This document shows positions 5,934 to 44,437 of a stretch of 60,870 nucleotides of DNA, piece by piece. Position 1 is the stretch's first letter. Each line of letters starts with the position of its first letter. Made by a program: the position numbers and the translations under genes. The stretch comes from an uncultured Clostridia bacterium (GTDB lineage: Bacteria > Bacillota > Clostridia > TANB77 > CAG-465). The notes below the pieces were generated by a model. That model was given only the letters and a program-made list of their open reading frames with translations. It was not told the DNA's origin and ran no database searches. The stretch covers positions 1 to 60,870 of the forward strand of contig CANRLG010000005.1 of NCBI GenBank assembly GCA_947631415.1, in the 5' to 3' direction.

Positions 5934-6035
5934 ATAATAAAATGATAATGTTAAAAAAGTAGGTTATGCCTACTTTTTCTTGCAATAAATTGAAAATTAA
6001 TATTTCTTATGATATATTTTTTACAGGTGTTATAT

Positions 6036-6866
6036 ATGAAGAAAAGGAAATTATTTTGTGAGTACGGCAAAATTCCATATAAAATATCTACCGTTAAAGA
6101 AAATCTTAGAAAAGATATAAAAGATTTATTTCAAAAAAATCATATTGCTAAACAGAAAAATAAAGAAAATTTTAAGTATATATGGAAAGGTGATGCAAGA
6201 ATAATTCGCAGAAAACTCTATGGAGTAGATATGCAGTTACAGATAAATAAAGCCAAAAATCTAGAACTTGCAGGAAAAGAAATTGATGGATTAATAATAA
6301 AACCTGGAGAAGTCTTTTCTTTTTGGAATACAATAGGAAACCCTACTAAAAAAAGAGGATATTTAAAAGGTTTAACAATATCTAGTGGAAAGTTTGGTCA
6401 AAACTATGGTGGAGGACTATGTCAAATGGCAAATTTAATACATTATTTAGTATTACACACTCCACTTGAAGTAGTTGAACTTCATCATCATACAGATGCA
6501 TTATTCCCAGATTTTAAGAGAACTGTACCTTTTGGAACAGGAACATCTGTAGCATATAAAACGATAGATTATAGGTTTAAAAATACTTTAGATGTTCCAG
6601 TACAACTTAGAGTATGGCAGGATGAGGTAATGTTATACGGAGAAATACGTTCTATTAAACCTTTAGAAGTTAAATATAAATTAGTTGAAGAAGATAGTTT
6701 TTATAGAAAAGAAGAAGATGGAATATTTTACAGAAATAGTAACGTGTATAGATTGAAAATAGATAAAAATACAGACAAGCAAGTAGAAAAAGAGTTAATA
6801 TTAAAAAATCATTCAAAAGTTATGTATGATTATAATTTAATTCCAAAGGAGCAAATAAGGAGCTAA
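6036..6866 (+). CDS. VanW-domain protein (no obvious signal peptide or TM)
   Basis: GGGLCQMANLIHY motif and surrounding blocks typical of the VanW family; start set at ATG 6036 after AGGTG. Confidence 0.7.
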   Translation: MKKRKLFCEYGKIPYKISTVKENLRKDIKDLFQKNHIAKQKNKENFKYIWKGDARIIRRKLYGVDMQLQINKAKNLELAGKEIDGLIIKPGEVFSFWNTIGNPTKKRGYLKGLTISSGKFGQNYGGGLCQMANLIHYLVLHTPLEVVELHHHTDALFPDFKRTVPFGTGTSVAYKTIDYRFKNTLDVPVQLRVWQDEVMLYGEIRSIKPLEVKYKLVEEDSFYRKEEDGIFYRNSNVYRLKIDKNTDKQVEKELILKNHSKVMYDYNLIPKEQIRS

Positions 6867-6869
6867 AAT

Positions 6870-8306
6870 ATGATACTAGACAAGATAAAAAAAGTAATGT
6901 TAGAGAAAAAAGATAATATTTTTAGCAATGAAGAAAATATTACGTATTTTCAATTATATACATACATTTTAAATTTATATATTTACCTTAATACTATAAA
7001 AAGTGAAAATAATAAAATAATTATATATGGTCATAAAAGTGTATATTATATAGTTTGTATGCTTGCCTGTGCATATTCTGGAATTAGTTATATTCCAGTA
7101 GATGTTTCTTTTAGTGATGAAAGAATACAAGATATAATTAATATAATAAAGCCAGATTTAATATTAAATACAATAACTTTAAAAGTAGAAAATGTAAATA
7201 GAGAAATCATAGTAGATGAACTAGAAAAGATAATGACAGAAAAAAGTATTGAAATTGAACTTATACCACAAATTAAACCAGAAGATATATATTATATAAT
7301 TTTTACTTCAGGTAGTACAGGAAGTCCTAAAGGAGTACAAATTACATACAATAATTTAGATACATTTTGTAATAAAATAATAGCTAAATTTAATATAGAA
7401 GAAAGTGTAATATTAAATCAAGCATTGTTTTCTTTTGATCTATCTGTTGCAGATATATATTTAACTTTATTAACAGGTTCAAAATATGTTATGCTAACAG
7501 CAAAAGAGATAAAAGATTATCCAAGATTATATAAAAAAATAAAGGAAAATAATGTAGAAGTAATAATAGCTACACCATCATTTATAGAATATTTGCTTGT
7601 AGATAGGACATTTAATGAGGATAATTTTAGATGCTTAAATACAATATTTACTTGTGGAGAAACATTAACTCTAAATACAGTAAAAAAGATAAAAGAAAGA
7701 TTTAAAAATGTAGTAATACATAATGCTTATGGTCCAACAGAATGTACTGTAGCTGTAACAATGGAAACAATACATGAGTTACCATATAAAGTTCCTGCAG
7801 GAAATTATATGGATAATACTTTTTGCATTGTAGATGATAATTTAATGAGAGTAAGTACACAAGGAAATATATTAATTTATGGAGATTTAGTATCAAAAGG
7901 ATATATAAATTATCCAAATGAAGCATTTGTAGAATTTGAAGGAAAAAGAGCATATCTTACTGGAGATATAGGATATATAGAAGATAATAAGTTGTATTAT
8001 TTGTATAGAAAAGATAGACAAATTAAATTAAACGGATATAGAGTAGAGCTAGGGGAAATAGAAAGCAAAATAATGAGTGTTGAAAGTGTAAGTAAATGTG
8101 TAGCAACAGTAAAAAGAAATAGAGAAGGTAAAGTAAAAAAGATAATAGTATATGTTGTTACGAAAGACACAAAAGAAAAACTAAAAGAAAAGCTTAAAAA
8201 TAGTATTTCAGACTATATGTTTCCTGAAATAAAAATTGTGAAAAAGTTACCTATTAACGAAAATTATAAAGTAGATGTAAAAAAGATAGAGGAAAAGATA
8301 AAATGA
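6870..8306 (+). CDS. DltA-like D-alanine--carrier protein ligase (adenylate-forming enzyme)
   Basis: IFTSGSTGSPKGVQITYNNL, NAYGPTECTVAVT and YLTGDIGY...IKLNGYRVELGEIE match the DltA-type AMP-binding core motifs; 478 aa. Confidence 0.8.
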   Translation: MILDKIKKVMLEKKDNIFSNEENITYFQLYTYILNLYIYLNTIKSENNKIIIYGHKSVYYIVCMLACAYSGISYIPVDVSFSDERIQDIINIIKPDLILNTITLKVENVNREIIVDELEKIMTEKSIEIELIPQIKPEDIYYIIFTSGSTGSPKGVQITYNNLDTFCNKIIAKFNIEESVILNQALFSFDLSVADIYLTLLTGSKYVMLTAKEIKDYPRLYKKIKENNVEVIIATPSFIEYLLVDRTFNEDNFRCLNTIFTCGETLTLNTVKKIKERFKNVVIHNAYGPTECTVAVTMETIHELPYKVPAGNYMDNTFCIVDDNLMRVSTQGNILIYGDLVSKGYINYPNEAFVEFEGKRAYLTGDIGYIEDNKLYYLYRKDRQIKLNGYRVELGEIESKIMSVESVSKCVATVKRNREGKVKKIIVYVVTKDTKEKLKEKLKNSISDYMFPEIKIVKKLPINENYKVDVKKIEEKIK

Positions 8307-8554
8307 GAGATAAAATAATTGAAATTATATATGAAATATCTGAAAATGAAGAATTTAAAGCAAATCCAGATATAGACTTAATTGAAAATGAAGTAATAGA
8401 TTCTATGGACTTTTTAGAGTTAATCTCATGTATAGAAGAAACATTTAATATTGAGCTTATAGTAAGTCAAATACCATCAAGTGTATGGAGAAAGGTAAAT
8501 TCTATATCTGAAATGATAGAAGAATATATTAAAGAGAAAAATGAAGAAAATTAA
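8303..8554 (+). CDS. DltC-like acyl/D-alanyl carrier protein
   Basis: 83-aa acidic protein with phosphopantetheine-type serine in VIDSMDFLEL (Ser34, nt 8402-8404); ATGA overlap with the upstream ligase gene. Confidence 0.75.
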   Translation: MRDKIIEIIYEISENEEFKANPDIDLIENEVIDSMDFLELISCIEETFNIELIVSQIPSSVWRKVNSISEMIEEYIKEKNEEN

Positions 8555-10091
8555 AGAATATTTTAGTGGAGATATTTTTGAAAAAATCACGGACATATAT
8601 ATTTTCTTAGTTATAATAATCTTTCCACTTATTGTAGATTCAACGGGATTTTTTAGAATACTTGAATGTAAATATAAAGCGTTTTTAATTCTTTCTAGCG
8701 GATATATACTAGTAAATATAGTAACATATTTGTATTATCTACTAATAGAGAGAAAAAATATTTTAAAGGGAAGAAAAATATCTAAGGTACAAATTTTTGC
8801 TATTGTATTTTGGCTTGTAAATCTTGTGTCTTGTATTTTATCTCCATATAAAAGTACAGCTAATTTGTTATATGGTGTAGGCAGAGGAGAAGGACTAATA
8901 AATATGACATTGTATGTAGTAACCTTTTTATTAATTACTACATTTGGTAAATTTAAGAGAAGACATATAATGTACTTTTCAATATCTGCCATATTATTAA
9001 ATATTATTGCTATACTGCAATTTATAGGATTTAACCCATTAAATATGTATCAAGATGGGATAGGAACACATAATGTTAGCTTTATGGGTACAATAGGAAA
9101 CGTAGATTTTATTTCTGCACTTTATTGTATACTTATTACAATATCTGCTTTTGCATATATTTATATGGATAATAATAAATTTGAGAAAATTCTACACTTA
9201 GTTTCTGTCGCAATGTGTAGTTTTATATTAAATATAATAGATGTAAATAGTGGTAAAGTAGGATTACTTGCAATTATAATGTTAGCATTTCCGTTTATTA
9301 TAACTTGTTCAAAAAGATTAAGAAAAACATTAGATGTAGTAAATATGGTTATGATTGCAAATTGTATAAATGTTATAATGAATACGCAATATCATTATGA
9401 CATTGCTAAAATAGTGCTAGATTTTCAATTTAATTATATTGTTTTTCTATTCATTGTAGTTATAGTTATTTTAACGATTTTATCTAAAATACTTAAAAAT
9501 GTGGATTATGATGTATCTAGTAATAAAAAGATAATACGAAATATTTATTTATTGTATGTTGTTGGCGCACTAGTTATTGTAGCTTTTTTCTACTTTGTAG
9601 ATTTAAAAATAGGTATGTTATCTGAAATACATGAAATCCTTCATGGAAATTTAAAGGATGAATATGGTACATTTAGAGTATTTTTGTGGAGACGAACATT
9701 AAAACTTGTTAAAGATTACCCTATTTTAGGTTCAGGTTCAGATACTTTTGCAATTAGATTTATGTCGAGATTTTCAGATGATGTAGCATCTATTGGAGAA
9801 TATACCATAAATGATACAGCAGCAAACGTATATCTTACAATGTTAATTAATATTGGAGTAGTAGGATTAATAGCATATTTAGGATTATTATTTTATAGTT
9901 TCAAGGAAGTCTTAAATTTCAAATCTAAAAATTTAGTAGAAGAAAATAAAGAAAAAATGGTAATTTTATCTGCTATAACTTGCTATATAATTCAAGACTT
10001 TTTCAATTTATGGGTCGTAATTATTACACCTATATTTTGGAGTACACTTGCTTTACTTAATTTATCTGCAAAAAATGTTGAAAAAAGTTAA
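8541..10091 (+). CDS. O-antigen-ligase / Wzy_C-like polytopic membrane protein
   Basis: 516 aa, at least 10 hydrophobic segments; loop FRVFLWRRTLKLVKDYPILGSGSDTF then AANVYLTMLINIGVVG resembles the Wzy_C family signature; 14-nt overlap with the carrier protein gene. Confidence 0.6.
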   Translation: MKKIKEYFSGDIFEKITDIYIFLVIIIFPLIVDSTGFFRILECKYKAFLILSSGYILVNIVTYLYYLLIERKNILKGRKISKVQIFAIVFWLVNLVSCILSPYKSTANLLYGVGRGEGLINMTLYVVTFLLITTFGKFKRRHIMYFSISAILLNIIAILQFIGFNPLNMYQDGIGTHNVSFMGTIGNVDFISALYCILITISAFAYIYMDNNKFEKILHLVSVAMCSFILNIIDVNSGKVGLLAIIMLAFPFIITCSKRLRKTLDVVNMVMIANCINVIMNTQYHYDIAKIVLDFQFNYIVFLFIVVIVILTILSKILKNVDYDVSSNKKIIRNIYLLYVVGALVIVAFFYFVDLKIGMLSEIHEILHGNLKDEYGTFRVFLWRRTLKLVKDYPILGSGSDTFAIRFMSRFSDDVASIGEYTINDTAANVYLTMLINIGVVGLIAYLGLLFYSFKEVLNFKSKNLVEENKEKMVILSAITCYIIQDFFNLWVVIITPIFWSTLALLNLSAKNVEKS

Positions 10092-10128
10092 AATTAAAAA
10101 TATAATTTATTATATAGAGGTGTAATAT

Positions 10129-11904
10129 ATGAAAGAACAAAAGAAAAAAATATTTACATGGAGAATAAATTTATTTATTTTTCTAATTTTCTCACTTGGA
10201 TGTATTTTTGGAGTAGCAATTTCAGGAATACAAATTCCTTCACTTGAAGGTTATTTGATGTCTAAAGCTACTACAATAACAACAAATAGTTACCAAGAGA
10301 TTGAAGCAGACCCATCTTGTTATGCTACTAGTCCAAATGCAACTTGCAGTGATGTAGATTATGGCAATGCGACTAGTCCAAATGCTACAAGTGATGATGC
10401 TAGAGATGATTTTATATTATTAACACAACTTACAGCAGAAAATACTTCAGCACAGGCTGGACAAAGAATATATTTACATTGTTATACTTACGGAAATTGT
10501 TTAAATGGTGCAACTTTAACTTTTTATAATAACAATATAGGTTTAGGATTTACTTCACAATTAGAATTTGAAGGAGATACTACATTTATAACAATACCAG
10601 AAGAAACAGTTCCAGCTACTTATGATTTTTCATCAATAATACTTAATGCAACTTCTTATGGCTCAGGAACATTTACAAAAATGTATGGAGCAAATGACAT
10701 AGAAAATAAATTAAGTATAACTGTAGAAAAAAATGAAAGTATAAAAGATATAGAGCTTAAGAAAATAGACTTTGAAAAGGATGAAATAGCAATAGGTGAA
10801 AACCTAGGAGTTATATTACAAACAGATGTAGAAGTTAGTAGTGCTAAATTTACATTTAAGAATACTCAAACAGAACAGTTAGTTACTGCATATATGAAAA
10901 AAGATGGTGGAAAAGACTATATTAGTTTTGCAAGCAGTACAAAAGAAGGTACTTATGAGTTAACAAAACTAGTATTATCTAATTCAAATTCAACAACAAT
11001 ATATTCAAAAGATGAAGACCAATCTTCAATAGCATATAATTTTGATAACAAAATAAAAGTAAATAGTGGAGATAATACTACTCTTGAATATAATAATGAA
11101 GAAATTACATCAGATGATGTAACTGAAATTGCTACATCTAATAATGTACAACGCGTTATAATAAATGCAGATACAAAATCTGTAATTTCAGAAGATATCT
11201 TTAATGCAGTAAAAGGAAAAACAATTGAATTAATAATTAATTATAAGGGAAATCAATTTATATTTATTGGTCAAGAGATAACAACAACAAAAGATATAGA
11301 TGTAAGTATCAAGTCATATTCTTTAGTTTCAAGATTTGATGAGATAAAAAATTTTGTAGGAGAAAATGGAGTAGTTGTTAACTTTGCTTCAAATGGTAAT
11401 TTACCAAGTAAAGCTAGAATAAAGATTAAACAAACTTCTGAAATGAAAACTGTTTTAGGTTCAAATAGCATATATGTATATTACTATGATGATTTAACAC
11501 AAAAATTTGAAGAAGTAGTAAATAATCTTGTAGCAGATTCTGATGGATATTATACATTCTCAGTTACACATAATTCTAAATTCTTGTTTACAACAGAAAA
11601 ATTAGATGATAGTTTACTTCAAGAAACAGAGGATGAAAATGTAGTTAGTTTCTTAATGAGCAATAAAGTATATTTAATATTAATAATATTAGCTTTAGTT
11701 TTAATAGTTGTTGTAATAGTAATTATAATTGTATATAACAAGAAGAAAAAAGAAGTTACTAATACACCAGTTGCTCCAAAGAAAGAAGATTATCTAACAG
11801 ATAAAAAAATAGAGGAGATAAAAACTGAAGAAGTAAATGAGGATAGCAAAGACACTCAAAAAGAAGAATTACAAGAAAATAACGAAGATAAAAAAGAAGA
11901 ATAA
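10129..11904 (+). CDS. surface protein with N-terminal signal/anchor, two beta-rich modules, C-terminal TM and KE-rich cytoplasmic tail
   Basis: 591-aa ORF; hydrophobic N-terminus; TSPNAT direct repeat; TM VYLILIILALVLIVVVIVIIIVY followed by NKKKKE and an acidic/lysine-rich tail. Confidence 0.6.
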   Translation: MKEQKKKIFTWRINLFIFLIFSLGCIFGVAISGIQIPSLEGYLMSKATTITTNSYQEIEADPSCYATSPNATCSDVDYGNATSPNATSDDARDDFILLTQLTAENTSAQAGQRIYLHCYTYGNCLNGATLTFYNNNIGLGFTSQLEFEGDTTFITIPEETVPATYDFSSIILNATSYGSGTFTKMYGANDIENKLSITVEKNESIKDIELKKIDFEKDEIAIGENLGVILQTDVEVSSAKFTFKNTQTEQLVTAYMKKDGGKDYISFASSTKEGTYELTKLVLSNSNSTTIYSKDEDQSSIAYNFDNKIKVNSGDNTTLEYNNEEITSDDVTEIATSNNVQRVIINADTKSVISEDIFNAVKGKTIELIINYKGNQFIFIGQEITTTKDIDVSIKSYSLVSRFDEIKNFVGENGVVVNFASNGNLPSKARIKIKQTSEMKTVLGSNSIYVYYYDDLTQKFEEVVNNLVADSDGYYTFSVTHNSKFLFTTEKLDDSLLQETEDENVVSFLMSNKVYLILIILALVLIVVVIVIIIVYNKKKKEVTNTPVAPKKEDYLTDKKIEEIKTEEVNEDSKDTQKEELQENNEDKKEE

Positions 11905-11921
11905 ATGTGATATAAATTAGT

Positions 11922-11954
11922 AGAGGAATAGTTAAATATTCCTTTACTTTTTTT
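11922..11954 (+). terminator. intrinsic terminator
   Basis: stem AGAGGAATA/TATTCCTTT with 6-nt loop, followed by AC and T7. Confidence 0.7.
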
Positions 11955-13878: not shown

Positions 13879-15312
13879 ATGAAAGATTATGAAGTAATAA
13901 TAGGACTTGAAGTTCATGCAGAACTTTCAACAAATACTAAAATGTACTGTAATTGTTCAACATCATTTGGTGCAGACCCAAATACACATTGTTGTCCAAT
14001 TTGTACTGGTATGCCTGGTGTTCTTCCAGTATTAAATGAAAAAGTTGTAGAATATGCTGTAAAAGCTGGTCTTGCAACTAATTGTGATATTTCAAGATTT
14101 TCAAAACAAGATAGAAAAAATTATTTTTATCCAGACTTACCAAAAGCATATCAGACATCACAATATGACCTTCCTTTATGTTTAGGAGGACATTTAGATA
14201 TTAATGTAAATGGTGAGAAAAAGAGAATTGGTATTACAAGAATTCATATAGAAGAAGATGCAGGTAAATTAATACATGATGCATATACTGGAGATACTTT
14301 AGTAGATATGAATAGATGTGCTGTTCCACTTATTGAAATAGTTTCTGAACCAGATATTAGAAACGCAGATGAAGCAGTAGCATATATGCAAACTTTAAAA
14401 TCTATACTAGAATACTTAAATGTATGTGATTGTAAAATGCAAGAAGGTTCACTTAGATGTGATGTTAATCTATCAGTAAGACCTGTAGGACAAAAAGAAT
14501 TTGGAACAAGAACAGAAACAAAGAATTTGAATTCATTTAAAGCAATACATAACTTAATTGAATTTGAAACAAATAGACAAATAAAAGTTATTGAAGAAGG
14601 TGGAAAAATAAAACAGGAAACTATAAGATGGGATGATGCAAAAGGAATTGGTTATGCAATGCGTGCAAAAGAAGATGCTCATGATTATAGATATTTCCCA
14701 GAACCAGATTTAGCACCTATCGTATTAAGTGATGAATATGTAAATAATATAAAAGACAATTTACCAGAAATGCCTCATATTAAGAAAGAAAGATATATGA
14801 AAGAATTTTCTTTACCAGAATATGATGCAGATATATTAACTTCATCAATTAAATCTGCAAATTTCTTTGAAAAAGCAAACGATATTTGTAATAATCCAAA
14901 AGCTGTTGCAAACTGGATTATGGGAGATTTTGCAAGAATGTTAAATGAAAAAGAAATAGAAATAGATGAATCAAAAGTTACTCCAGAAAATCTTGCAGAA
15001 CTTATAAATTTAATAGATAAAGGAACAATATCATCAAAAATAGCTAAACAAGTTTTTGAAGATATGTTTGAAAGTGGAGAAAATGCTAAAGAAATAGTTG
15101 AGAAAAAAGGACTTGTTCAAATGTCAGATGAGGGAGCAATAAAAGAACTAGTAGAAAAGGTAGTTCAAGCAAATCCTCAATCTATAGCAGACTATAAAGC
15201 AGGAAAAGATAAAGCTATAGGATTTCTTGTTGGACAAATCATGAAAGAAACTAAAGGAAAAGCAAATCCACAAATTGTAAATAAGTTGTTACTTGAAATA
15301 ATAAATAAATAG
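13879..15312 (+). CDS. gatB: Asp/Glu-tRNA amidotransferase subunit B
   Basis: IGLEVHAEL N-terminus, zinc-site CPxC, C-terminal GatB/YqeY domain. Confidence 0.95.
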   Translation: MKDYEVIIGLEVHAELSTNTKMYCNCSTSFGADPNTHCCPICTGMPGVLPVLNEKVVEYAVKAGLATNCDISRFSKQDRKNYFYPDLPKAYQTSQYDLPLCLGGHLDINVNGEKKRIGITRIHIEEDAGKLIHDAYTGDTLVDMNRCAVPLIEIVSEPDIRNADEAVAYMQTLKSILEYLNVCDCKMQEGSLRCDVNLSVRPVGQKEFGTRTETKNLNSFKAIHNLIEFETNRQIKVIEEGGKIKQETIRWDDAKGIGYAMRAKEDAHDYRYFPEPDLAPIVLSDEYVNNIKDNLPEMPHIKKERYMKEFSLPEYDADILTSSIKSANFFEKANDICNNPKAVANWIMGDFARMLNEKEIEIDESKVTPENLAELINLIDKGTISSKIAKQVFEDMFESGENAKEIVEKKGLVQMSDEGAIKELVEKVVQANPQSIADYKAGKDKAIGFLVGQIMKETKGKANPQIVNKLLLEIINK

Positions 15313-15353
15313 TGTATAATATTAATATATGAATTTTTAAGGGAGTGATAGTA

Positions 15354-15845
15354 ATGAAAAAAACAAATGTTATACTGACTTGTGTTATAGCTGTCTTTGT
15401 TATATCTGCTGTTATAGTTTTAACAGTAGCATTGATGAGTAATATTGAAAAAGATGTAGTACCAGTAGATTTGGATTTAACACTACTATCAACAAACATT
15501 GAAGATTCAACAGATTTAGATAATGCTAATCTTCAAGCTATTACTATGGAAGATTTAACAGATAAGTTCTATATAAAACAAGAATGGGTTAAAGATTTTA
15601 TTGGAAAAGTTCCTTCAGTAAATATTAGTTCTAATATGTACATAATAATTGAAGCAACAGAGGGGAATGTAGAAAACATTAAACAAGCATTCAGAGATTA
15701 TGGTGATACTTACGAAGAACTATGGAAAGATTATCTTGCAGAAGATTATGAACTTGTTCAAAATCGTAAAATCGGTTCTAAAGGAAACTATGTATACTTT
15801 ATTGTAGATGTTTATTCAGAAGACATAGTAGACTTAATTAAATAA
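15354..15845 (+). CDS. membrane-anchored hypothetical protein (DUF4358-like)
   Basis: N-terminal TM; overall pattern recalls DUF4358 proteins of Clostridia; start set at ATG 15354 after GGGAG. Confidence 0.4.
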   Translation: MKKTNVILTCVIAVFVISAVIVLTVALMSNIEKDVVPVDLDLTLLSTNIEDSTDLDNANLQAITMEDLTDKFYIKQEWVKDFIGKVPSVNISSNMYIIIEATEGNVENIKQAFRDYGDTYEELWKDYLAEDYELVQNRKIGSKGNYVYFIVDVYSEDIVDLIK

Positions 15846-15850
15846 ATAAT

Positions 15851-15887
15851 AAAAAACTCTAGAGATTTAGTTCTTTAGAGTTTTTTT
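15851..15887 (+). terminator. intrinsic terminator
   Basis: AAAAAACTCTAGAG / CTTTAGAGTTTTTTT stem-loop followed by a T-run. Confidence 0.75.
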
Positions 15888-15966
15888 GTGCCTAAATTAA
15901 ATAATTTTGGATACTAATATAATTGAATAAACACTTGTTTTAGTGTATAATTTATGTGGTGATATA

Positions 15967-18027
15967 ATGGAAAAAAGTATAAATTTGGATACTAGTGTGC
16001 AATATTTAAAAGGCGTAGGTCCAAAGATGTTTGAACTGTTAAATAAACTTGGAATTTATACAGTAAAAGATTTAATAGAATACTACCCTAGAACGTATGA
16101 AGATAGAACTAAGGTAGTTAAGATAGATGAGTTTGAAAAAGATAAAAATGTGTTGTTTTTTGGAACTGTGGTAAAACCTGTATCAGTTGTATATGCAAGA
16201 AAGAAAAAAATAATATCAACTGTTGTAACAGATGATACAGGCTCACTTGCATTTTTAACATGGTATAATCAAATATACATAAAAGATAGGTTAAAAGAAG
16301 GACAAACATATCTTTTCTTTGGAAAAGTATCTAATATTATTGGAAGTAGAGTAAATTTAGAGTCTTGTAGTATATATGATGTTTCTCAACTTGAAAAGAT
16401 ACAAGGTTTATACCCTATATACAGTCTAACAGCTGGAATTACTCAGAATTATCTATTTAAAATAATAAGCGAACTTTTAGAGAAAAACATAATGTTAACA
16501 GATATTTTTTCTACCGAATTTAGAACAAAATATGGTTTAGTTGAAAAAAATTATGCAGTGCAAAATGTACATTTTCCTAAGTCATATAATATGGTAGAAA
16601 GTGCTAGAAATAGGATAATCTTTGAAGAACTTTTTTTATTTCAATTAGCTCTTTTTAATATGAAAGAAAATAATTTAGTAGAAACAAAGACAAATATATA
16701 TAAAGATTTAGATGATAGCGAATTTAGAAAAATAATTCCTTTTGAACTAACTAATGCTCAAAAAAGAGTAGTTGAACAAATAAAAAAAGACTTAAGCTCA
16801 AATATTGTAATGAATAGACTTGTACAAGGAGATGTAGGCTCAGGAAAAACTATGGTAGCAGCTATTGCAATGTATCTAGCGGTAAAAAATGGTTATCAAG
16901 CAGCAATTATGGCACCTACAACAATTCTTGCAAATCAACATTATAATGAGTTATCCGTGTATTTTGAAAAACTAGGCATGAGAGCAGAGATAATAACTTC
17001 TGCTACTACTAAAAGAAATAAGGAAAAAATTGTAGAAAGATTAAAGAATAATGAAATAGACATATTAATTGGAACTCACTCTATAATAGAGGATAATATT
17101 GAATTTAGTAATTTAGGACTTGTTGTAACAGATGAACAACATAGATTTGGTGTTAAACAAAGAATGAAACTTTCAACCAAAGGAAAAGTAGTAGATACAC
17201 TTGTTATGACAGCAACACCAATACCTCGTTCACTTGCAATTATCTTGTATGGAGATTTAGACCTCTCAATTATAGATGAATTACCACCAGGAAGAAAACC
17301 AATAGATACATGCGTAGTAGATGATTCATATAATCAGAGAGTATATAATTTTCTAAGGAAACAAATAAAAGAGGGAAGACAGGTATATGTAGTATGTCCT
17401 TTAGTAGAAGAAAATGAAGATTTAGACTTAAATTCAGTGGAAAGTCTGTACGAGGAATATAAACAAGAATTTTCAGAGTATAATGTAGCAATACTTCATG
17501 GAAAGATGAAGAATAAAGAAAAAGACAATATTATGCAGGAGTTTAAAGAAAATAATATAAATATTTTAATCTCTACTACTGTTATCGAGGTTGGTATTAG
17601 TGTACCAAATGCTACAGTAATGGTAATAGAAAATGCAGATAGGTTTGGTCTTGCAGCATTGCACCAACTTCGTGGTAGAGTTGGTAGAGGAAGTTCAGCT
17701 TCGTATTGTATCCTAAAAAGTAACAATAAATCTGTAATTGCTAGACAAAGACTTGGAATAATGAAAGAAAGTAATGATGGCTTTTTAATTGCTAGAAAGG
17801 ACTTAGAGTTAAGAGGTCCAGGAGATTTCTTTGGAATAAGACAGTCTGGAATGCCAGAATTTAAACTTGCAAATTTATTAACAGATACTAAGGTACTTGA
17901 AAAAACTCAAGAAGCGGTAAAAGAGTTAATTGAAAAAGATAAAAAACTAGAACTACCTGAAAATATTAGAATAAGAAATGAATTATATAGTAAATATGGC
18001 GAACAATTAACTAAAATAGTAGGATAG
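15967..18027 (+). CDS. recG: ATP-dependent DNA helicase RecG
   Basis: wedge-domain N-terminus, Walker A GDVGSGKT, DEQHRFG, QLRGRVGRG; start set at ATG 15967 rather than GTG 15943. Confidence 0.93.
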   Translation: MEKSINLDTSVQYLKGVGPKMFELLNKLGIYTVKDLIEYYPRTYEDRTKVVKIDEFEKDKNVLFFGTVVKPVSVVYARKKKIISTVVTDDTGSLAFLTWYNQIYIKDRLKEGQTYLFFGKVSNIIGSRVNLESCSIYDVSQLEKIQGLYPIYSLTAGITQNYLFKIISELLEKNIMLTDIFSTEFRTKYGLVEKNYAVQNVHFPKSYNMVESARNRIIFEELFLFQLALFNMKENNLVETKTNIYKDLDDSEFRKIIPFELTNAQKRVVEQIKKDLSSNIVMNRLVQGDVGSGKTMVAAIAMYLAVKNGYQAAIMAPTTILANQHYNELSVYFEKLGMRAEIITSATTKRNKEKIVERLKNNEIDILIGTHSIIEDNIEFSNLGLVVTDEQHRFGVKQRMKLSTKGKVVDTLVMTATPIPRSLAIILYGDLDLSIIDELPPGRKPIDTCVVDDSYNQRVYNFLRKQIKEGRQVYVVCPLVEENEDLDLNSVESLYEEYKQEFSEYNVAILHGKMKNKEKDNIMQEFKENNINILISTTVIEVGISVPNATVMVIENADRFGLAALHQLRGRVGRGSSASYCILKSNNKSVIARQRLGIMKESNDGFLIARKDLELRGPGDFFGIRQSGMPEFKLANLLTDTKVLEKTQEAVKELIEKDKKLELPENIRIRNELYSKYGEQLTKIVG

Positions 18028-18035
18028 GAGAGAGT

Positions 18036-18815
18036 ATGATAGATATAGACAATGCAAAAATAGTATTTAAAGAATATGTAAGTAATTATGATATAACTAA
18101 TGGAAGAATAAAGCTAAAAATGGAACATATACTTCATGTAGCACAAAATTGTAAATTAATTGCACAAAATCTAGGACTAGATGAAGAAAAAGTAAAACTT
18201 GCTGAACTAATAGGATTTTTTCATGATATAGGAAGATTTGAACAAGCAAGAGTATATGATACTTTTAGTGATAGAGATAGTGGTATAGACCATGCAAGTT
18301 ACAGTCTAAAAGTGCTATATGAAGATGGTTTGATAGATAAATTTATTGATACAAATGAATATGATGATATAATAAAAAAAGCTGTATATAATCATAATAA
18401 AGCAAAAATAGATGAAGATGTTGAAGGAGAGGCTTTGTTATTTTCTAAAATAATTCGTGATGCAGATAAACTGGATATATATCGTGTAATGAACGAAGAT
18501 GAAATGATAGATATTTTTTGGTACAAAGATTTCCAAAATCAAGAAATGAGTGAAGCATTATTTGAAGAATTTGTAAAAGAAAGATTTGTTAATTATAAGC
18601 ATATACATAATAATGCAGACCAAATACTTGCTTTTTACAGTTATCTTTTTGATTTTAATTATCCATTTTGTTTGAAGATAATAAGTGATAAAAAATATTT
18701 AGAGTCTTTCTATAACAGAGTAGTTGAAACATTTAAAAGTGATTCTATAACTCAAAAGACAAAGGAAGTATTAGAAATGTGTAATAACTATATAAAAGAA
18801 AAAATAAATGAATAA
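18036..18815 (+). CDS. HD-domain phosphohydrolase
   Basis: HD motif FFHDIGRFEQ and downstream IRDADKLDI. Confidence 0.7.
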   Translation: MIDIDNAKIVFKEYVSNYDITNGRIKLKMEHILHVAQNCKLIAQNLGLDEEKVKLAELIGFFHDIGRFEQARVYDTFSDRDSGIDHASYSLKVLYEDGLIDKFIDTNEYDDIIKKAVYNHNKAKIDEDVEGEALLFSKIIRDADKLDIYRVMNEDEMIDIFWYKDFQNQEMSEALFEEFVKERFVNYKHIHNNADQILAFYSYLFDFNYPFCLKIISDKKYLESFYNRVVETFKSDSITQKTKEVLEMCNNYIKEKINE

Positions 18816-18850
18816 AAAAAGAGCATTCTCACTTAAGAGAGTGCTCTTTA
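18814..18850. terminator. bidirectional terminator between convergent genes
   Basis: 11-bp stem AGAGCATTCTC/GAGAGTGCTCT flanked by A7 on the left (T7 on the minus strand) and TTTA on the right. Confidence 0.6.
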
Positions 18851-18858
18851 TAGTATAA

Positions 18859-19464
18859 TTACATTTTTAAAACATCTTTACTTAATGATTGACCAATCAT
18901 AAATAATAAGATACAGATAAATAAGGTAACTACGATTGTTATCATACTTGTTATTATTGCACGAATAAAAGTAAGTTTTTTAGGTCCTAAATGAATTTCA
19001 GTTAAAGCCTTTTTAGAGTTTCCAAAAGTTATATCTTTCTTAAAGATTTTTTTAGATAAGAATGATATAAATTTCTTTAATGAAAATCTAACTGAACCTG
19101 TGACACGTTGGTAGTTAATATTTACAGTGTAATATGTAAATGATTGTAAAAAAGTGCCGATTATAAATGTTGAAATTAAAGGTTTAATTATAACATATTT
19201 ATATTGTTCAAGTAGAGCATGGTCAAAAATCATTGAAAATAAAATATCTAATGAATTATTGTCCATTGCTTTATTTATTGTGTTAAAGCATCCAAGTAGT
19301 AATAATACCCATAGAGCAACAGTAAGTGTTGCGGGTATAAATAATTTTTTAGATTCGTAGTTATATAATGTAGTAATCATAAGAGCAAGCTTCATAGAAG
19401 TGTCTACAATTACTATGAGTAGTAGTGCAACAAGAATTACTACTAAAATTGTAATAAGCCACAT
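18859..19464 (-). CDS. hypothetical polytopic membrane protein
   Basis: 201-aa ORF with 4-5 hydrophobic segments, 31 nt downstream of the GT4 gene on the same strand. Confidence 0.55.
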   Translation of the reverse strand: MWLITILVVILVALLLIVIVDTSMKLALMITTLYNYESKKLFIPATLTVALWVLLLLGCFNTINKAMDNNSLDILFSMIFDHALLEQYKYVIIKPLISTFIIGTFLQSFTYYTVNINYQRVTGSVRFSLKKFISFLSKKIFKKDITFGNSKKALTEIHLGPKKLTFIRAIITSMITIVVTLFICILLFMIGQSLSKDVLKM

Positions 19465-19495: not shown

Positions 19496-20746
19496 CTATT
19501 TCTTTGCTATCATTTGTAGTTTCTTTTTAATTGTGCTATATATTGTTTTTTTCTTTTCTTTGTTTTTTTCTTTATTTAATTTTATCATTTCAGAGTATAT
19601 AGTTTCTAATTTTTCTCCAAATTTTTCTGAAGAAAAATCATTTGCAGTTTCAAGTCCATTAGATATTAAAGTATCTCTTAAATCTTTATCATCTAATACT
19701 CTAATTATTGCATCACTAAATTCACTATTGTTGTGAACAAATATACCATTTTTTTCATTAGTAATAAATTCTGTAAGATTAGGTGCATATTTACAAACAA
19801 CAGGAGTACTTGCTGCCATAGCTTCAATAAATGTTAAACCTTGTGTTTCAGTAAGAGAAGCATTAACAAATACATCTGCCATATTATAGTATTTTGGTAC
19901 TTCTACCCAAGGAATTTTACCTGTAAATATTACTTTATCTTGAATATTTAATTTTTTGACTTGGGCTTTTAAATCTTCCTCTTGTGGTCCGTAACCTGCA
20001 ATTACAAATTTTACTTTGTTATATTTTTTGAAAAGCTCTGGCATTTGGTCAATAATAACATCTATACTTTTTTCATCTGCTATTCTACCTAAAAATAGAA
20101 TAACTTTTTCATCTTTAGCAATACCAAGAGAAGTTTTTAAGTTAAGTCTATCTTCATCTGTAAAGTTTTCTGCTTTAAAAGGTACAATATCTATTCCTGT
20201 TGGAACAACGTATATTGGTTTATTTTGAACTTTACATTCATTTTTTAGGTATTCAGCTGTTTTTTTTGAAGGTGCTATTACACAACTTGCTTTTCTAACA
20301 AAAGTCTTAGAAAAATTTCTTACAACCTTTTTAAGATTTGAATGATTACCTTTAAATGGTGAAATATAATGTAGATAGTCTTCCCACATAGTGTGGTAAG
20401 TGTGAATAAATGGTATATTCATTTTTCTTGACATTATCTTTCCAAATAGTCCAAGAGAAAACTCATCTTGAGTATGAACTACATCTATACCCAGTTCTTT
20501 TACTCTTTTTGCTACTTCTCTTGAATAAAAAGTTGCAATTCTATACTTATATTCTTTTGCAATTAATAGAGGAATACTTCTTACCATATAAAGAGTTTGA
20601 TTATCGTTTGGTTGAATTGCTTTAGTAGGAGCAAAAACATATACTTCATGTCCTCTTTTTTTCATTTCTTGTTCAACCATATTTATAGATGTAACTACCC
20701 CAGAAGTAGTGGGATTATACGCATCTGTAAAAATACCAATCTTCAT
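19496..20746 (-). CDS. family-4 glycosyltransferase, alpha-monoglucosyl-diacylglycerol-synthase-like
   Basis: N-terminus MKIGIFTDAYNPTTSGVVTSI...GHEVYVFAP and C-terminal E-x7-E region (TETQGLTFIEAMA) typical of GT4 glycolipid synthases. Confidence 0.7.
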   Translation of the reverse strand: MKIGIFTDAYNPTTSGVVTSINMVEQEMKKRGHEVYVFAPTKAIQPNDNQTLYMVRSIPLLIAKEYKYRIATFYSREVAKRVKELGIDVVHTQDEFSLGLFGKIMSRKMNIPFIHTYHTMWEDYLHYISPFKGNHSNLKKVVRNFSKTFVRKASCVIAPSKKTAEYLKNECKVQNKPIYVVPTGIDIVPFKAENFTDEDRLNLKTSLGIAKDEKVILFLGRIADEKSIDVIIDQMPELFKKYNKVKFVIAGYGPQEEDLKAQVKKLNIQDKVIFTGKIPWVEVPKYYNMADVFVNASLTETQGLTFIEAMAASTPVVCKYAPNLTEFITNEKNGIFVHNNSEFSDAIIRVLDDKDLRDTLISNGLETANDFSSEKFGEKLETIYSEMIKLNKEKNKEKKKTIYSTIKKKLQMIAKK

Positions 20747-20992
20747 ATAATATTCAACTCCTTAAATAAATATTACTTTATTGTAACATTTTTTGTCAAA
20801 ATTACAAAAATATTATATATTAAAAACCAAAAAAAGTCAATAAATAAAGGCTTTTTAGATTATTTACATAATTTGTAATAAGACTACATAATTTTATGTT
20901 ACATTATTGACTTAAATTTGTTTTTTATGCTATAATCGAAATATAAGGGGTAATATTAATATATTATTTTTTGTTATAGGAGGATGAATCTA

Positions 20993-21634
20993 ATGAAAAA
21001 AGGTAAGATACTAAGTAGTATAAAAATAAAGGAAATAGTAATACTTGTATTATTTATAGCAATAACTTCTTTTGCAATAATTGAGGTAAAAAATCTATTA
21101 AATCAAGAGAAAATTAAAAATTTAACAGAGCAGATAAAAACATCTACTACTGGAAGTGATGGAAATATACTTGCAAGCCTTGCAGGTAAAGAACCTATAC
21201 GTGTAACAGGTAATGCTATTGCTGTATTAGATATTTCTGCATACGGTATTCGTGGTCAAATAGTTGAAGGAACAGATGATGAAACTTTAAAAAATTATAT
21301 AGGAAAATTTGAAGGTAGCGCAGAACCAGGACAAATAGGTAACTTTGCACTTGCTGCACATAATAATATATATACTGAAATATTTAGAAATTTACACAAA
21401 GTACAAGTTGGAGATAGAATTGTAATAGTAACAAAAACACATGAATACATTTATTCAGTTACATCTACAACTGTTGTAGACCCATCTCAAACAGAAGTAT
21501 TAGATTGGTCAAATAAAAGAGAGATTACTTGTATAACATGTACATCTGCTGCTACAAGAAGAGTTGTAGTTAAAGGTGAACTTGTTTCTGAAAGAGAATT
21601 AAATGAGCAAGAAATTGAAGAAGGTGTTAAATAG
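20993..21634 (+). CDS. sortase (class-E-like by motif)
   Basis: N-terminal TM; GNFALAAHN (His), EITCITCTS (Cys), RRVVVKGEL (Arg); start set at ATG 20993, 9 nt after AGGAGG. Confidence 0.75.
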   Translation: MKKGKILSSIKIKEIVILVLFIAITSFAIIEVKNLLNQEKIKNLTEQIKTSTTGSDGNILASLAGKEPIRVTGNAIAVLDISAYGIRGQIVEGTDDETLKNYIGKFEGSAEPGQIGNFALAAHNNIYTEIFRNLHKVQVGDRIVIVTKTHEYIYSVTSTTVVDPSQTEVLDWSNKREITCITCTSAATRRVVVKGELVSERELNEQEIEEGVK

Positions 21635-22176
21635 TGCCTAAAAAAATAAAGAAAGAAGAAGGCTTTAGTTTTAGTAAAGAGGATAAACTTCTTAGAGTAG
21701 ACAATATTCATTATTTTGTTATTCTTGCAGTAGTTATTCTTGTACTTGTATGTGCGTGTGTTGGTGGATTTGTATATTCAAGGGATAAGTATCACGCACA
21801 TAAAGATGTTGCATTTACAAATTTTGAATATACAGAGAAAACAGATGAAGGCTATATACAATACCAAGTATATCTTGACGATGAAAATAGGGTTTATACA
21901 TATTATATTATGCCAAATGGAGAGACTGTTGAGAAAAAATGGTCTTATGGTAAATATTTAGACTTCAATGAAGAAATGTATGATAGTGGACTTTTTGACC
22001 AAATATTTGGTGCAGAAGTAGAAATAGAAGATGTAGATGTAGACTGGAGTTTAGATGTAAAACTTGTTAATGGTAATACTGTTCACAATTCAAGCAATTT
22101 TGAAGAAAAAGTAGATAAAACTAAATTCTCACAAGTTATTAAAAAATATTTTAATCAGGAGATATTGTATAAATAA
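21634..22176 (+). CDS. hypothetical membrane-anchored protein
   Basis: GTG start overlaps the sortase stop by 1 nt; one TM (YFVILAVVILVLVCACVGGFVY). Confidence 0.5.
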   Translation: MPKKIKKEEGFSFSKEDKLLRVDNIHYFVILAVVILVLVCACVGGFVYSRDKYHAHKDVAFTNFEYTEKTDEGYIQYQVYLDDENRVYTYYIMPNGETVEKKWSYGKYLDFNEEMYDSGLFDQIFGAEVEIEDVDVDWSLDVKLVNGNTVHNSSNFEEKVDKTKFSQVIKKYFNQEILYK

Positions 22177-35442: not shown

Positions 35443-38400
35443 ATGAAAAAAGCTAAATTATTTACAGTAATAGCATTGATGTTTATGTGCATTGCTATGT
35501 TTGGAACAGCCGAAGTACAAGCAAGAACCTTTTCTTATGGTAAGGGTTCAAGCACCAATTTATATGAATCTACTGGTGCTGGTGGAGACACAGACCATTC
35601 ATATTATAACTACTTTCTTGATGGTGAGAAAGTATGGTGTGTTGAGGCCGGAGTTAAGATAAAAAATAGTGCAAACTATACTGAATCACAGGTATGGGGT
35701 GGTACAGCAGCAATAAGCTATGTTATGTTTATGTACTATGATGGAAAGATTAGTGACCAGCTTTCACAGGCTGCTGTTTGGCAGATGATGCAAAGTATTA
35801 ATGGTTCTCATCTTACTAGTGGTAACATAGGTAGAGTTTATGAAGTAATTACAGAAGCAGAAAATTATGTTGCAAATCAAAACGCACAATCTGGTTCTAT
35901 TCAACCAAGTAGTGGAAATTTATATTTTGATGCAGGAAGTAATACATATAGAATGGACTTTACAGCATCTAGTATGCCATCAACATCTGCAGGAAGGATA
36001 CAAGATAATGGTGGTGGAAGCTATACATTAATTGTTGATGCTAATACTGTTAACTCAGATATGGATATAAGTCTAAGTTCATCTGGTTCAGGATGGATTT
36101 ATAAAGATATGACAGTATGGATTTGTGGTTCATGGCAAAAACTTGCTACTCCAAATCGTGAAGCAGCTGGAAATGCAGGTGCAACATATCATCTAGAAGC
36201 ACTTGGAAGTTTAAAAGTCAGAAAAACAGATGAATTCGGAGAGGGAGTAGCTAGTGCTACATTCTCAGTAACAGGACCTTCAGGAACAAATACATTAACA
36301 ACAGGTGATGATGGTTGGGCATATTGGGACAATATAATAGTAGGAGATTATACAGTAACTGAGACTAGTGTTCCATCTGGACTTTCTAAAAAGCCAAATC
36401 CACAAACAAAACATGTTGGAAGTGGACAAGTTGGTGTAGCAGAATTCTTATATGTAAATGGATATCAAAGAGGTTCAGCACAACTTGTAAAATATGATGA
36501 TGCAGCAAGAACATTTAATATTCGTAAAACATTAGGTGATGCTGTATTAAAAGATGCTGTATATAATCTTTATGCGGCAACAGATATATACGAAGGAAAA
36601 AGACTTCGTTATAGTGCAGGAGAAATAGTAAGGTCAAATTTACATACAGATGTAAATGGTATAACACCAGAGGTCAAAGATTTGCCTATTGGTTCATACT
36701 ACTATGAAGAAGTAACACCATCTGTAGGTTTTGACATTAATAGAGAGAGAGTATATTTATCTATTGGGGCAAACTCTGATCCTGAAGCAACAGAGGCAGG
36801 AAAAGTTGGTGTTGAACATCCAGAAAAACCTCAATGGTATAAAATAGTAATAAATAAAAGATTACAAGAGACAGATTATGATGATGAAGCAAATTTAGCT
36901 TTAAAAGATAATTATCATGACTTTAAAGGAGCTCAATTTAAACTTACATTAAAATCTGATCCAACACAAGTATATTACACACATGGAACTACTGTAAAAG
37001 ATCCAAGTGGAACAACTCCAGAAGAAAAATATGAACCTTTATCTGGAGTAGACGGAATTTGTGAAGCAGAAAATATTCCTTATGGTGTATATACAGTTGA
37101 AGAAGTGCAATGGCCAACTATTGTTTATCAACCAGTACCAAACTTTGATGTAGACTTTAGAGATGACTCTCCTGATGTAACAGATAAAGGAAATAGAGTA
37201 GCTGAATTCATAAATAATAGAAGAATGGTTAATGACTCAAAGAAAGTAACAGTACAAGTAAATAAAAAATTAGTATTGGAAAAATTTGAAGCACCAGATG
37301 GAAGCATAACAGAAGAAGATTCTGATGCAAAGTTAAAAGGTGCAGTATTTGGATTATTTAGAGATACACAAGCAGATAATGGTGGAGAATGTGCATCATG
37401 TCCTATATGTAGAGCTAATATAGAAAAAATGTCACATTATACAGATTATCTTCCACCAGAAGATAAAGACCCAATAAATTACACATTAGATGATTTAAAA
37501 AGATATATTGGATATCAAGAATGTCCAAATTGTGATAACTTTGTAGACTTTATAGGACCTACAAATACTGAGGGATTTGCAGAACTTCAAGGATATGTAT
37601 GGGCAGGAACTTATTACTTAAAAGAAATAGCATTCCCAGAAGGTGTTGATCCTGATGCTACAGTAATAGACCCAGAAAGTACAACATTCTATGATGAAAA
37701 AGACAATAAAAATCCAAATAAAAACTTTTGGTTTGTTGATAAGGGAGAAGCAGTTGAAGAATCTGGTGTTAAGTACAGAGATAAGATATATACATTAGTA
37801 ATGCCTCCTGAAGATCAAGAAGATGAGCATAGAACATACTCATATGATTTATTAAATCGTCCAAAGAGAAATAGAATTGAAATTAAAAAGATGCTTGAAG
37901 GTGCATCAAATACAGAAAGACATGAATTTGAAAACTGTATTTTTACAGCATATTTGAAATCTTCTATTGGAACTGATCATGAATTTTCAAGAGAAGTTGA
38001 AGACCCTACAGATACAGCTGGTTGGGCAACAATATTAGACTTACCTTATGGTGAATATATAGTTAAAGAAACTTATCATCCACCAATTTCATTACAATGT
38101 TCAGACTTTACAATATTTATAGAAGAAGATATAAAGGAACATCCACAACCTTATGTACCAACTGATGGTGTATTCTCACAAATGGAACAAGTTATAGATA
38201 CACCAACAGGAGCAATAGTTGACCCTATCAAAAAAATGAAAATAAAGATTAGAAAAGTTGATGCTGAAAGAAGAGAAGATTATAACAAAGATTATACTTC
38301 TGGTGATGCATCTCTTGAAGGAGCAAGATATGGAGTTTATGGACTAGATGAAGATAACAACTTCACTAAGTATGTAGGTGAAATAGTTATAGATCAAAAA

Positions 38401-44343: not shown

Positions 44344-44437
44344 AAAATATTCCTTAATTTGAGGATACTACATTAATTTGTAGTATCTTCAAATGGGGAT
44401 ATTATGATATATTAAAACTATAGAAAGAGGTATATAT

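Follow-up and report, generated by a model that had tools for sequence, protein, structure and literature searches.

Carrier-protein-dependent aminoacylation of the cell envelope has been described in two forms, the DltABCD system that D-alanylates teichoic acids (pathway summarised in PMC12838833) and the AlmEFG system of Vibrio cholerae, in which the DltA-like AlmE and the DltC-like AlmF operate without DltB or DltD and, on the cytoplasmic side, pass glycine to lipid A via another transferase (PMC4278540). In 2024, VanW domains were identified as L,D-transpeptidases whose conserved Cys is essential, with a Cys-His-Asp triad proposed and a thioacyl intermediate inferred; the characterised enzymes, Ldt4 and Ldt5 of C. 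difficile, are membrane-anchored and extracellular, and all VanW domains characterised so far act on peptidoglycan (PMC11348318). Here, we analyzed a stretch of 60,870 nt from an uncultured Clostridia bacterium (assembly GCA_947631415.1, contig CANRLG010000005.1), hereafter the window, which carries a five-gene operon on the + strand at 6036-11904. The operon is made up of two modules, a core that encodes a VanW-family protein, a DltA-like ligase and a DltC-like carrier, and an accessory module that encodes a Wzy_C-like membrane protein and a surface protein with two transmembrane (TM) segments.

The analysis revealed that the VanW-ligase-carrier trio is a conserved unit of its own. We propose, tentatively and at somewhat less than an even chance, a Dlt-like aminoacyl-carrier pathway in which the VanW-family enzyme, rather than the Wzy_C protein, replaces DltB and DltD and moves the aminoacyl group from the carrier to an envelope precursor. 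An earlier sequence-only reading of the same DNA had given the replacement role to the Wzy_C protein and knew of no characterised example of such a route. That interpretation was partly right. A Dlt-like system without DltB and DltD does exist in the Vibrio AlmEFG (PMC4278540), however, and the catalytic nature of VanW domains as Cys-His-Asp L,D-transpeptidases (PMC11348318), which bears on the invariant partner of the system, had been overlooked. In the literature, no description was found of VanW together with a DltA-like or other adenylating ligase and a carrier, nor of DltA/DltC together with an O-antigen ligase.

Gene Content and Conservation of the Core Trio

The VanW-family gene (6036..6866, + strand, 276 aa) is followed on the same strand by the gene of the DltA-like ligase, a stand-alone adenylating enzyme (6870..8306, 478 aa), that of the acidic DltC-like carrier (8303..8554, 83 aa), that of the polytopic Wzy_C-like protein (8541..10091, 516 aa) and the fifth gene (10129..11904, 591 aa). 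VanW and ligase genes are separated by a 3-nt gap, ligase and carrier genes share a 4-nt ATGA overlap, and carrier and Wzy_C genes overlap by 14 nt. The open reading frame (ORF) list gives the first gene as 6009..6866; its start was set at 6036 because of the conserved N-terminus of the homologues and a ribosome-binding site, aggtg, 7 nt before the ATG. The coordinates thus confirm the four packed + strand ORFs of the sequence-only reading, and all the peptide motifs it quoted are present in the translations, but the fifth gene had been missed. The family assignments it made for the four proteins are borne out by hidden Markov model (HMM) searches of Pfam: VanW (130.7 bits against a cut-off of 27, E 3e-38, model positions 1-129 of 130), AMP-binding (181 bits, with AMP-binding_C at 28.2 bits), PP-binding (20.9 bits against 20.8, borderline) and Wzy_C (51.8 bits against 31.7, E 1e-13). 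Its statement that the window holds no MBOAT-like or DltD-like ORF also stands, as HMMs built from canonical DltB, DltD and TraX gave no match among window ORFs of at least 50 aa, even at E ≤ 10.

The VanW, ligase and carrier genes were adjacent and co-oriented, in that order, in all nine contexts looked up by protein, with sizes of ~276 aa, ~485 aa and ~77 aa, respectively, and with flanks that differ widely; the trio junctions in called genes ranged from -32 to +12 nt. Ligase homologues with 40-62% identity were numerous in uncultured Clostridia. A scan of one genome per species yielded 80 loci, which were annotated with local HMMs on longest-ORF gene calls, and VanW lay directly 5′ of the ligase in 44 of them. 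In total, the core was seen in 44 species-level genome loci and in about 10 contigs, adjacent and co-oriented each time. The carrier was found 3′ of the ligase in 40 of these 44, while of the other four, two end at or just past the ligase gene and two have no detected carrier. The hosts of the trio include Clostridia, Oscillospiraceae, Acutalibacteraceae, Lachnospiraceae, Butyrivibrio, Peptococcaceae and uncultured Bacilli or 'Tenericutes'. Of the four-gene order described by the sequence-only reading, the VanW-ligase-carrier part is therefore conserved, but Wzy_C is present in only 11 of the 44 trio loci (~25%). A Pfam census of 134 flanking genes gave no other recurrent partner, the highest counts being PrsW (4), sortase (4) and TraX (3). 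Since the adjacency recurs throughout and the census shows no further recurrent neighbour, the VanW-ligase-carrier trio is the invariant unit, real and widely conserved in gut Firmicutes, and its arrangement is not due to chance.

Three canonical Dlt loci were detected in the same scan, in Bacillus, Peribacillus and a spirochaete metagenome-assembled genome (MAG) (L028, L029 and L031), all with contiguous dltA-dltB-dltC-dltD and without VanW. No DltB or DltD was found by HMM within 10 kb in ~110 VanW or Wzy_C loci, except for a separate set in locus L011. There, directly 3′ of a VanW/Wzy_C/TraX cluster (14875-19333), a second ligase is encoded with its own carrier and a DltB-like MBOAT protein. 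This second ligase lacks both the amino-acid-binding Asp and the DltA Cys; it is not a canonical DltA and was assigned to a separate set of adenylating enzyme, carrier protein and MBOAT. Two carrier-dependent membrane systems thus stand side by side in one genome.

With regard to cell-wall genes, the trio of one clade lies inside the dcw cluster, between an ftsI-type penicillin-binding protein (PBP) gene and murE and directly upstream of the latter, and the clade nearest to the window carries it just 5′ of mraZ-rsmH-PBP-murE.

The DltA-like Ligase and DltC-like Carrier

The NCBIfam models that score best on the ligase are those of DltA, under their curated cut-offs (NF003417, 401.7 against 476; TIGR01734, 381.9 against 559.85), and the best single-domain matches in PDB are DltA structures, with 234-248 bits; linear gramicidin synthase outranks them solely through the summing of two of its adenylation domains. 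K467, the catalytic Lys in motif A10, does not vary among 26 members of the family. From the structures of the B. cereus and S. aureus enzymes, the DltA pocket is formed, in B. cereus numbering, by Asp197, Leu198, Met200, Cys268/269 and Thr297, with the Asp binding the amine and the Cys selecting the enantiomer (PMC8972799). Aligned to canonical DltA, the pocket positions of the VanW-linked ligases hold D190 and L191 in 49 of 49 sequences each, C262 (Cys268/269) likewise in 49 of 49 and T290 (Thr297) in 46 of 49. The Met200 position is Ala in 46 of the 49, and the Trp before the TPSF motif has been lost; the canonical DltA of L031, which stands beside DltBCD, also has Ala at this position. On these alignment-based assignments, the best guess is that the substrate is most likely D-Ala, a close analogue or a slightly larger small D-amino acid.

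For the carrier, the best NCBIfam models are those of DltC, again under the cut-offs (50.8 against 68 and 44.6 against 52.35), and the predicted phosphopantetheine Ser in IDSMDFLEL aligns with the LDS(F/L)G of canonical DltC. The DltA-like and DltC-like identities given by the sequence-only reading are consistent with these best-scoring models and with a D-Ala-type pocket that keeps the enantiomer-selecting Cys. A neighbour-joining tree was also tried; it did not resolve the monophyly of the VanW-linked ligases with respect to DltA. In this tree, canonical DltA nests between the two VanW-linked groups.

These data bear on the explanation that the two proteins are an ordinary DltA and DltC which feed a DltB and DltD encoded elsewhere, with VanW merely a conserved neighbour that has a separate cell-wall role. 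DltA and DltC are indeed the best-scoring named families, the tree places canonical DltA between VanW-linked groups, and a homologue is labelled as D-alanine--poly(phosphoribitol) ligase subunit 1 in one database source. Nevertheless, the scores fall under the curated DltA and DltC cut-offs, the canonical operons L028, L029 and L031 are contiguous, DltB and DltD were absent within 10 kb in the ~110 loci, and the VanW and ligase genes overlap or nearly overlap in all the loci with called genes. Given the invariant coupling to VanW and the contiguous canonical operons, a split Dlt system is unlikely, and we regard it as a marginal prospect.

The VanW-Family Protein

The glycopeptide-resistance VanW model of NCBIfam (vanW-gen) aligns to the window protein over positions 28-263 of 271, with 187.5 bits against a curated cut-off of 365. 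No hydrophobic segment that could serve as a signal peptide or TM anchor was found in the window protein or in any of 46 homologues, in agreement with the sequence-only reading, and Pfam gave no match for PG4 or G5 domains in the window protein. Numbered from the start at 6036, C129 (of the GGGxCQ motif), H152 and D178 are invariant in sets of 36 and of 46 homologues and align with the Cys, His and Asp of TM-anchored VanW proteins in the fetched loci; which His and Asp form the triad was assigned by this alignment. The N-terminus is basic and carries an invariant RKLFCE motif. More than 3000 VanW homologues were found at E ≤ 1e-10, and those listed have 64-81% identity with the window protein; ligase homologues have 40-62%. 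That VanW is clearly more conserved than the ligase is taken to point to a conserved substrate or partner.

The AlphaFold2 (AF2) model of the protein has an overall predicted local distance difference test score (pLDDT) of 76.9. Foldseek matched this model to nothing in PDB at E ≤ 0.001, which agrees with the published statement of a novel fold for VanW and adds no mechanism, and a PDB sequence search gave nothing useful.

Short signal-less VanW proteins with ~38-43% identity, encoded without the ligase, were also obtained from cultured bacteria, namely an E. faecalis plasmid, Paenarthrobacter, Bacillus mycoides and Staphylococcus warneri. The S. warneri plasmid NZ_CP054016.1 (L162:4458-5822) encodes a 454-aa protein, annotated as a YqeG-family HAD phosphatase, that joins an N-terminal HAD domain to a full short VanW with ~42% identity to the window protein; the fusion to a cytoplasmic-type HAD phosphatase supports a cytoplasmic location of short VanW proteins. 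A further candidate, a 579-aa protein at L104:6291-8030, was rejected as a Rosetta-stone fusion: it places an alpha-glucan-phosphorylase-like fragment in frame with a VanW that lacks its first ~90 residues, probably as an outcome of chimeric assembly or of a deletion. On the B. mycoides plasmid NZ_CP036030.1 (L164:2398-5828), the short VanW gene comes after two genes of its own strand, one for a BlaI/MecI-type repressor and one for an M56 (BlaR1-like) sensor protease, an arrangement which suggests that a signal-less VanW is under beta-lactam or cell-wall-stress control.

Because VanW domains are known as Cys-His-Asp L,D-transpeptidases, VanW is the obvious candidate for acyl transfer, and we propose the signal-less VanW as the acyl-transfer enzyme of the system. 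A different role would fall to it if the trio had nothing to do with the envelope and formed a minimal thiotemplate pathway to a small metabolite, secreted or intracellular, with VanW as a releasing thioesterase, a cyclase or an editing enzyme. An adenylating enzyme, a carrier and a Cys hydrolase or transferase do make up a generic set of the nonribosomal peptide synthetase kind, and the flanking genes are highly variable. However, the characterised VanW domains all act on peptidoglycan, and the D-Ala-type pocket, the dcw-cluster placement in two clades and the coupling to Wzy_C and a surface protein all point to the envelope. Such a metabolite pathway is the reading least consistent with the gene contexts and in our view a highly improbable one.

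The Wzy_C Protein and the Accessory Module

The Wzy_C-like protein has 12 hydrophobic segments by hydropathy, and its Wzy_C loop lies between segments 10 and 11, as in WaaL-type enzymes. A PDB sequence search with its profile gave no match to any solved structure. WaaL and PglS have a proposed catalytic His, H324 in PglS, where the H324A variant serves as an inactive control (PMC12800693). In the window protein, the position equated with it by motif, not by structural superposition, is A428 (INDTAANVY), where wider relatives carry AHN, within D-x-A-H-N and a motif of the type H[NSQ]x9Gxx[GTY]: the His is present in 134 of 143 full-length relatives drawn from a library of 1.84 billion proteins. 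The sequence-only reading had expected a His here, and correctly so. The INDTAAN motif is found in 13 of 13 full-length subfamily members, with H177, H364, H368, R379 and R385 conserved, and the nearest relatives of the window protein have Ala, Gly or Cys at the His position. R379, an Arg of the large loop with a proposed role in pyrophosphate binding, is present in all 143 wider relatives, while H177 is invariant within the subfamily only. Judged from these alignments, the subfamily is a naturally His-less branch of the WaaL/PglL family.

A profile of this subfamily was run against metagenome contigs and gave 70 loci, of which 44 had enough flanking DNA to judge. VanW, ligase or carrier genes were also present in 43 of these 44, with the trio upstream in 23, the Wzy_C pair upstream in 19 and an interleaved order in one. 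A homologue of the fifth gene adjoins Wzy_C in 54 of the 70 loci, and a TraX-like membrane acyltransferase (PF05857), not encoded in the window, occurs in 20 of the 70. One His-containing Wzy_C relative was looked up, on a short contig, and this single example lacks both the trio and the fifth gene at its side. Wzy_C and the fifth gene are an accessory module dependent on the core.

The fifth protein has TM segments at 13-31 and 517-535 by hydropathy and a charged C-terminal tail. An alignment of 15 homologues shows a conserved LEGY just past the first TM segment, then a disordered linker rich in Asn-Ala-Thr/Ser with (S/D)NAT(S/D)-type repeats, and after it conserved beta-rich domains; the linker is long in many homologues and short in the window protein, which has three N-x-S/T sites in its first 100 residues. 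The AF2 model (pLDDT 73) predicts a string of beta-sandwiches at 96-490 and disorder at 27-92, and Foldseek returned only S-layer, adhesin and Ig/FN3-like matches to it. No PDB sequence match was found, and Pfam gave TM and low-complexity noise only. The idea of a DltD-like esterase or transferase was dropped, as the matches are generic Ig/FN3/S-layer ones with no enzyme fold. The model looks like that of a structural surface protein, a plausible acceptor or partner of Wzy_C and not an enzyme.

The role that the sequence-only reading gave to Wzy_C can now be weighed. It would replace DltB and DltD as the enzyme that delivers the aminoacyl group of the carrier to a surface acceptor (a glycopolymer, glycolipid or glycoprotein), with VanW as an accessory. 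In favour of this, 43 of 44 informative loci of the subfamily also contain core genes, the Wzy_C gene of the window overlaps the carrier gene by 14 nt, the protein it pairs with is a surface protein whose linker is rich in Ser, Thr and Asn, and the altered active-site motif could mean altered chemistry. The tie to the core therefore stands, but the stand-in for DltB and DltD does not: Wzy_C is missing within 10 kb of the trio in ~75% of the loci and hence cannot serve generally as the enzyme on the acceptor side. In addition, the active site of WaaL-type enzymes faces outward (PMC12800693), while the carrier protein is cytoplasmic. The gene that resembles a membrane acyltransferase, where present, is TraX. 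To our knowledge, no Wzy_C or GT-C member transfers acyl groups. Transfer of the aminoacyl group by Wzy_C is thus quite unlikely.

Some Wzy_C loci showed features of their own. In L135 (6542-10059), a short enterococcal-type VanW (N-terminus MARKRLTQIFPALLPLRQ) lies directly upstream of Wzy_C and a fifth-gene homologue, with no ligase or carrier in the 6.5 kb upstream; this lone example hints that VanW and Wzy_C may be linked without the carrier pair. Wzy_C is split into two ORFs at L018:12880-12930, where one extra base just before the GTGPDTF loop shifts the frame, and likewise in L023, L143 and L147; another site is affected in L004, L005, L011, L122 and L146, with the break in L011 near an A-rich run (aaaaaacaaaaataaaaac). 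These split genes could be pseudogenes, assembly errors or cases of phase variation.

Proposed Mechanism

In the proposed pathway, the small amino acid that the ligase would adenylate is most likely D-alanine or something close to it, and it would be loaded onto the phosphopantetheine arm of the carrier through a thioester bond, as homology and the pocket residues indicate. The conserved Cys of the signal-less VanW would then accept the aminoacyl group from this thioester, and VanW would hand it to a nucleophile on an envelope precursor at the cytoplasmic side or inner leaflet. The leading candidate for the acceptor is a peptidoglycan precursor (UDP-MurNAc-peptide or lipid II), which is favoured because of the placement between the ftsI-type PBP gene and murE, the proximity to mraZ-rsmH-PBP-murE and the peptidoglycan chemistry of the characterised VanW enzymes. 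The link to peptidoglycan that is drawn from the dcw placements and from the BlaI/BlaR1-like neighbours in B. mycoides is suggestive. The accessory module, Wzy_C and the fifth protein and elsewhere also the TraX-like protein, probably acts on a lipid-linked product on the outward-facing side of the membrane, where the fifth protein may be the acceptor or the partner of the Wzy_C step.

A serious variant of the peptidoglycan idea is a soluble product. VanW would condense the carrier-bound D-aminoacyl group with a free D-amino acid or hydroxy acid to yield a D-Ala-D-X dipeptide, a depsipeptide or another small amide that feeds MurF, a supply independent of Ddl. L,D-transpeptidases of both the VanW and the YkuD type use acyl-Cys intermediates, and L,D-transpeptidases accept free D-amino acids as nucleophiles. 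The trio lies directly upstream of murE in one clade, and the enterococcal VanW sits in operons that make alternative D-Ala-D-X. On the other hand, a soluble product leaves the dependence of Wzy_C and the surface protein on the core unexplained, and the acyl donor would have a D-centre, as opposed to the L-centre of the donors of known L,D-transpeptidases. We consider this variant unlikely.

Several points weigh against the proposed transfer from the carrier through VanW to an envelope precursor. The transfer from a carrier thioester to a VanW Cys is without precedent. The triad residues rest on an alignment only, and the AF2 model of VanW has pLDDT <50 at residues 151-175, beside the conserved His cluster. 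The missing signal peptide does not strictly prove a cytoplasmic location. Both ligase and carrier score under the NCBIfam DltA and DltC cut-offs, and with Met200 replaced by Ala, the substrate of the ligase may not be D-Ala. Most trio loci are not near cell-wall genes, so a peptidoglycan acceptor is weakly supported. The loci counted are mostly from related gut MAGs, and the counts are not phylogenetically independent. Finally, the expected catalytic His is missing in Wzy_C, which makes any role given to this protein tentative.

A broader form of the proposal, which we hold to be doubtful, is that short signal-less VanW proteins constitute a new class of carrier-dependent aminoacyl transferases. 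These would place a D-amino acid on cytoplasmic peptidoglycan precursors, as stem branches or D-Ala-D-X, beside the tRNA-dependent Fem and the ATP-grasp routes, and the His-less Wzy_C would then use the modified lipid-linked precursor outside to decorate or anchor the two-TM protein. If true, the VanW of enterococcal resistance clusters would by extension gain a cytoplasmic precursor-editing function.

Operon Boundaries and Surrounding Genes

A consensus scan placed a promoter-like site on the + strand at 5990..6018 (TTGAAA, 17 nt spacing, TATATT with an upstream TG), a pattern match only, and on reading the sequence it is preceded by a hairpin and T-run that close an upstream ArAE_1-like gene. 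A terminator-like hairpin with a 12-pair stem lies on the + strand at 11919-11948, 15 nt past the stop of the fifth gene, with a T-run to 11958; five terminator-like sites were observed in the region against 0.9 expected from shuffles. No RNA family was detected by Rfam at gathering thresholds in the whole 60.9-kb window (1-60870), and therefore no riboswitch or leader lies ahead of the operon. Firmicutes often carry T-box or other leaders 5′ of thrS, gatCAB and SUF genes; the blank result covers these regions of the window as well (thrS at 53513, gatCAB at 12099). The two-component system and the ArAE_1-like gene upstream in the window were placed outside the system because the census of 134 flanking genes gave no further recurrent partner.

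No van genes were found in the window, and no glycosyltransferase or sugar-nucleotide genes within the operon. The interval 19496-22176, 8-10 kb downstream of the operon, holds a minus-strand ORF that resembles GT4-type glycosyltransferases and an ORF that resembles sortases (20984-21634); sortase was one of the small number of families that recurred next to the module in other loci (4 of 134 flanking genes). Further downstream, the region 35443-47194 encodes two repeat-containing proteins. The first, of 2966 aa, is built from numerous repeated domains and has a TM anchor at its C-terminus; the second, of 918 aa, ends in two dockerin-like segments (GDVNLDGFINSTDAA... and GDMNNDGILNSTDAA...), so the organism may use cohesin-dockerin surface assemblies.

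Significance and Comparison with Known Systems

Carrier-dependent envelope aminoacylation, as in Dlt and AlmEFG, governs surface charge, resistance to antimicrobial peptides and host interaction, and here the same loading machinery is coupled to VanW, in a module that is widespread in uncultured gut Clostridia and Bacilli. The catalytic nature of VanW was uncovered only in 2024, and its role in vancomycin-resistance clusters has been a puzzle since these clusters were described. If the proposal is true, it would add a new acyl-transfer use of the VanW fold and possibly a new way to build or edit peptidoglycan precursors, and would give short signal-less VanW proteins a testable function. It would also define a His-less WaaL/PglL branch with a dedicated partner protein, which is relevant to glycoengineering and to the mechanism of the family.

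Like the WaaL, PglL/PglS and TacL members of the Wzy_C family, the window protein has a Wzy_C domain, 12 hydrophobic segments and the large-loop Arg (R379), and its candidate acceptor, the fifth protein, resembles substrates of O-oligosaccharyltransferases in its disordered Ser/Thr-rich stretch; it differs from these enzymes in that the proposed catalytic His is Ala across the subfamily. With the VanW of glycopeptide-resistance clusters (vanB, vanG) and other short VanW proteins, the window VanW shares its length, its full-length architecture and the absence of a hydrophobic N-terminus. However, it scores 187.5 against 365 on the resistance model and has no van genes nearby, and the enterococcal type is unlinked to a ligase and carrier. 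Ldt4 and Ldt5 of C. difficile resemble it in the Pfam VanW domain, the conserved Cys, the aligned His and Asp and the expected thioacyl-Cys chemistry (PMC11348318). They are membrane-anchored and extracellular, with PG4 and G5 domains and tetrapeptide-stem donors, whereas the window VanW lacks a TM segment, a signal peptide and PG4 and is genetically tied to an aminoacyl-carrier pair. For the proposed VanW step itself, parallels exist in andrimid AdmF, a transglutaminase-like enzyme, and in butirosin BtrH, in which a Cys takes an acyl or aminoacyl group from a carrier thioester and forms an amide on an acceptor amine. These belong to unrelated folds and to secondary-metabolite pathways, and the resemblance is mechanistic only.

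The closest functional precedent is AlmEFG, where a ligase and a carrier likewise feed a transferase that is not of the Dlt type. AlmG is a membrane protein with the fold of lipid A acyltransferases, whereas the transferase proposed here is the soluble VanW, and lipid A is absent from the hosts, which are Gram-positive-type Firmicutes. An AlmG-like component was not found, as Pfam matched no acyltransferase family to any of the five operon proteins. With DltABCD, the system shares a stand-alone ligase with a D-Ala-type pocket, an acidic carrier of ~80 aa with the DSx Ser, translational coupling and a presumed envelope target. It differs in having no MBOAT DltB and no DltD and in having a soluble VanW as the invariant third partner, and its ligase has Ala for Met200, no Trp before TPSF and scores below the cut-offs. 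Under the DltA and DltC cut-offs and with no DltB, DltD or AlmG, the system is a member of neither Dlt nor AlmEFG. The constant pairing of ligase and carrier with VanW points to a new route of cell-envelope modification, with a new enzyme class proposed for the transferase position.

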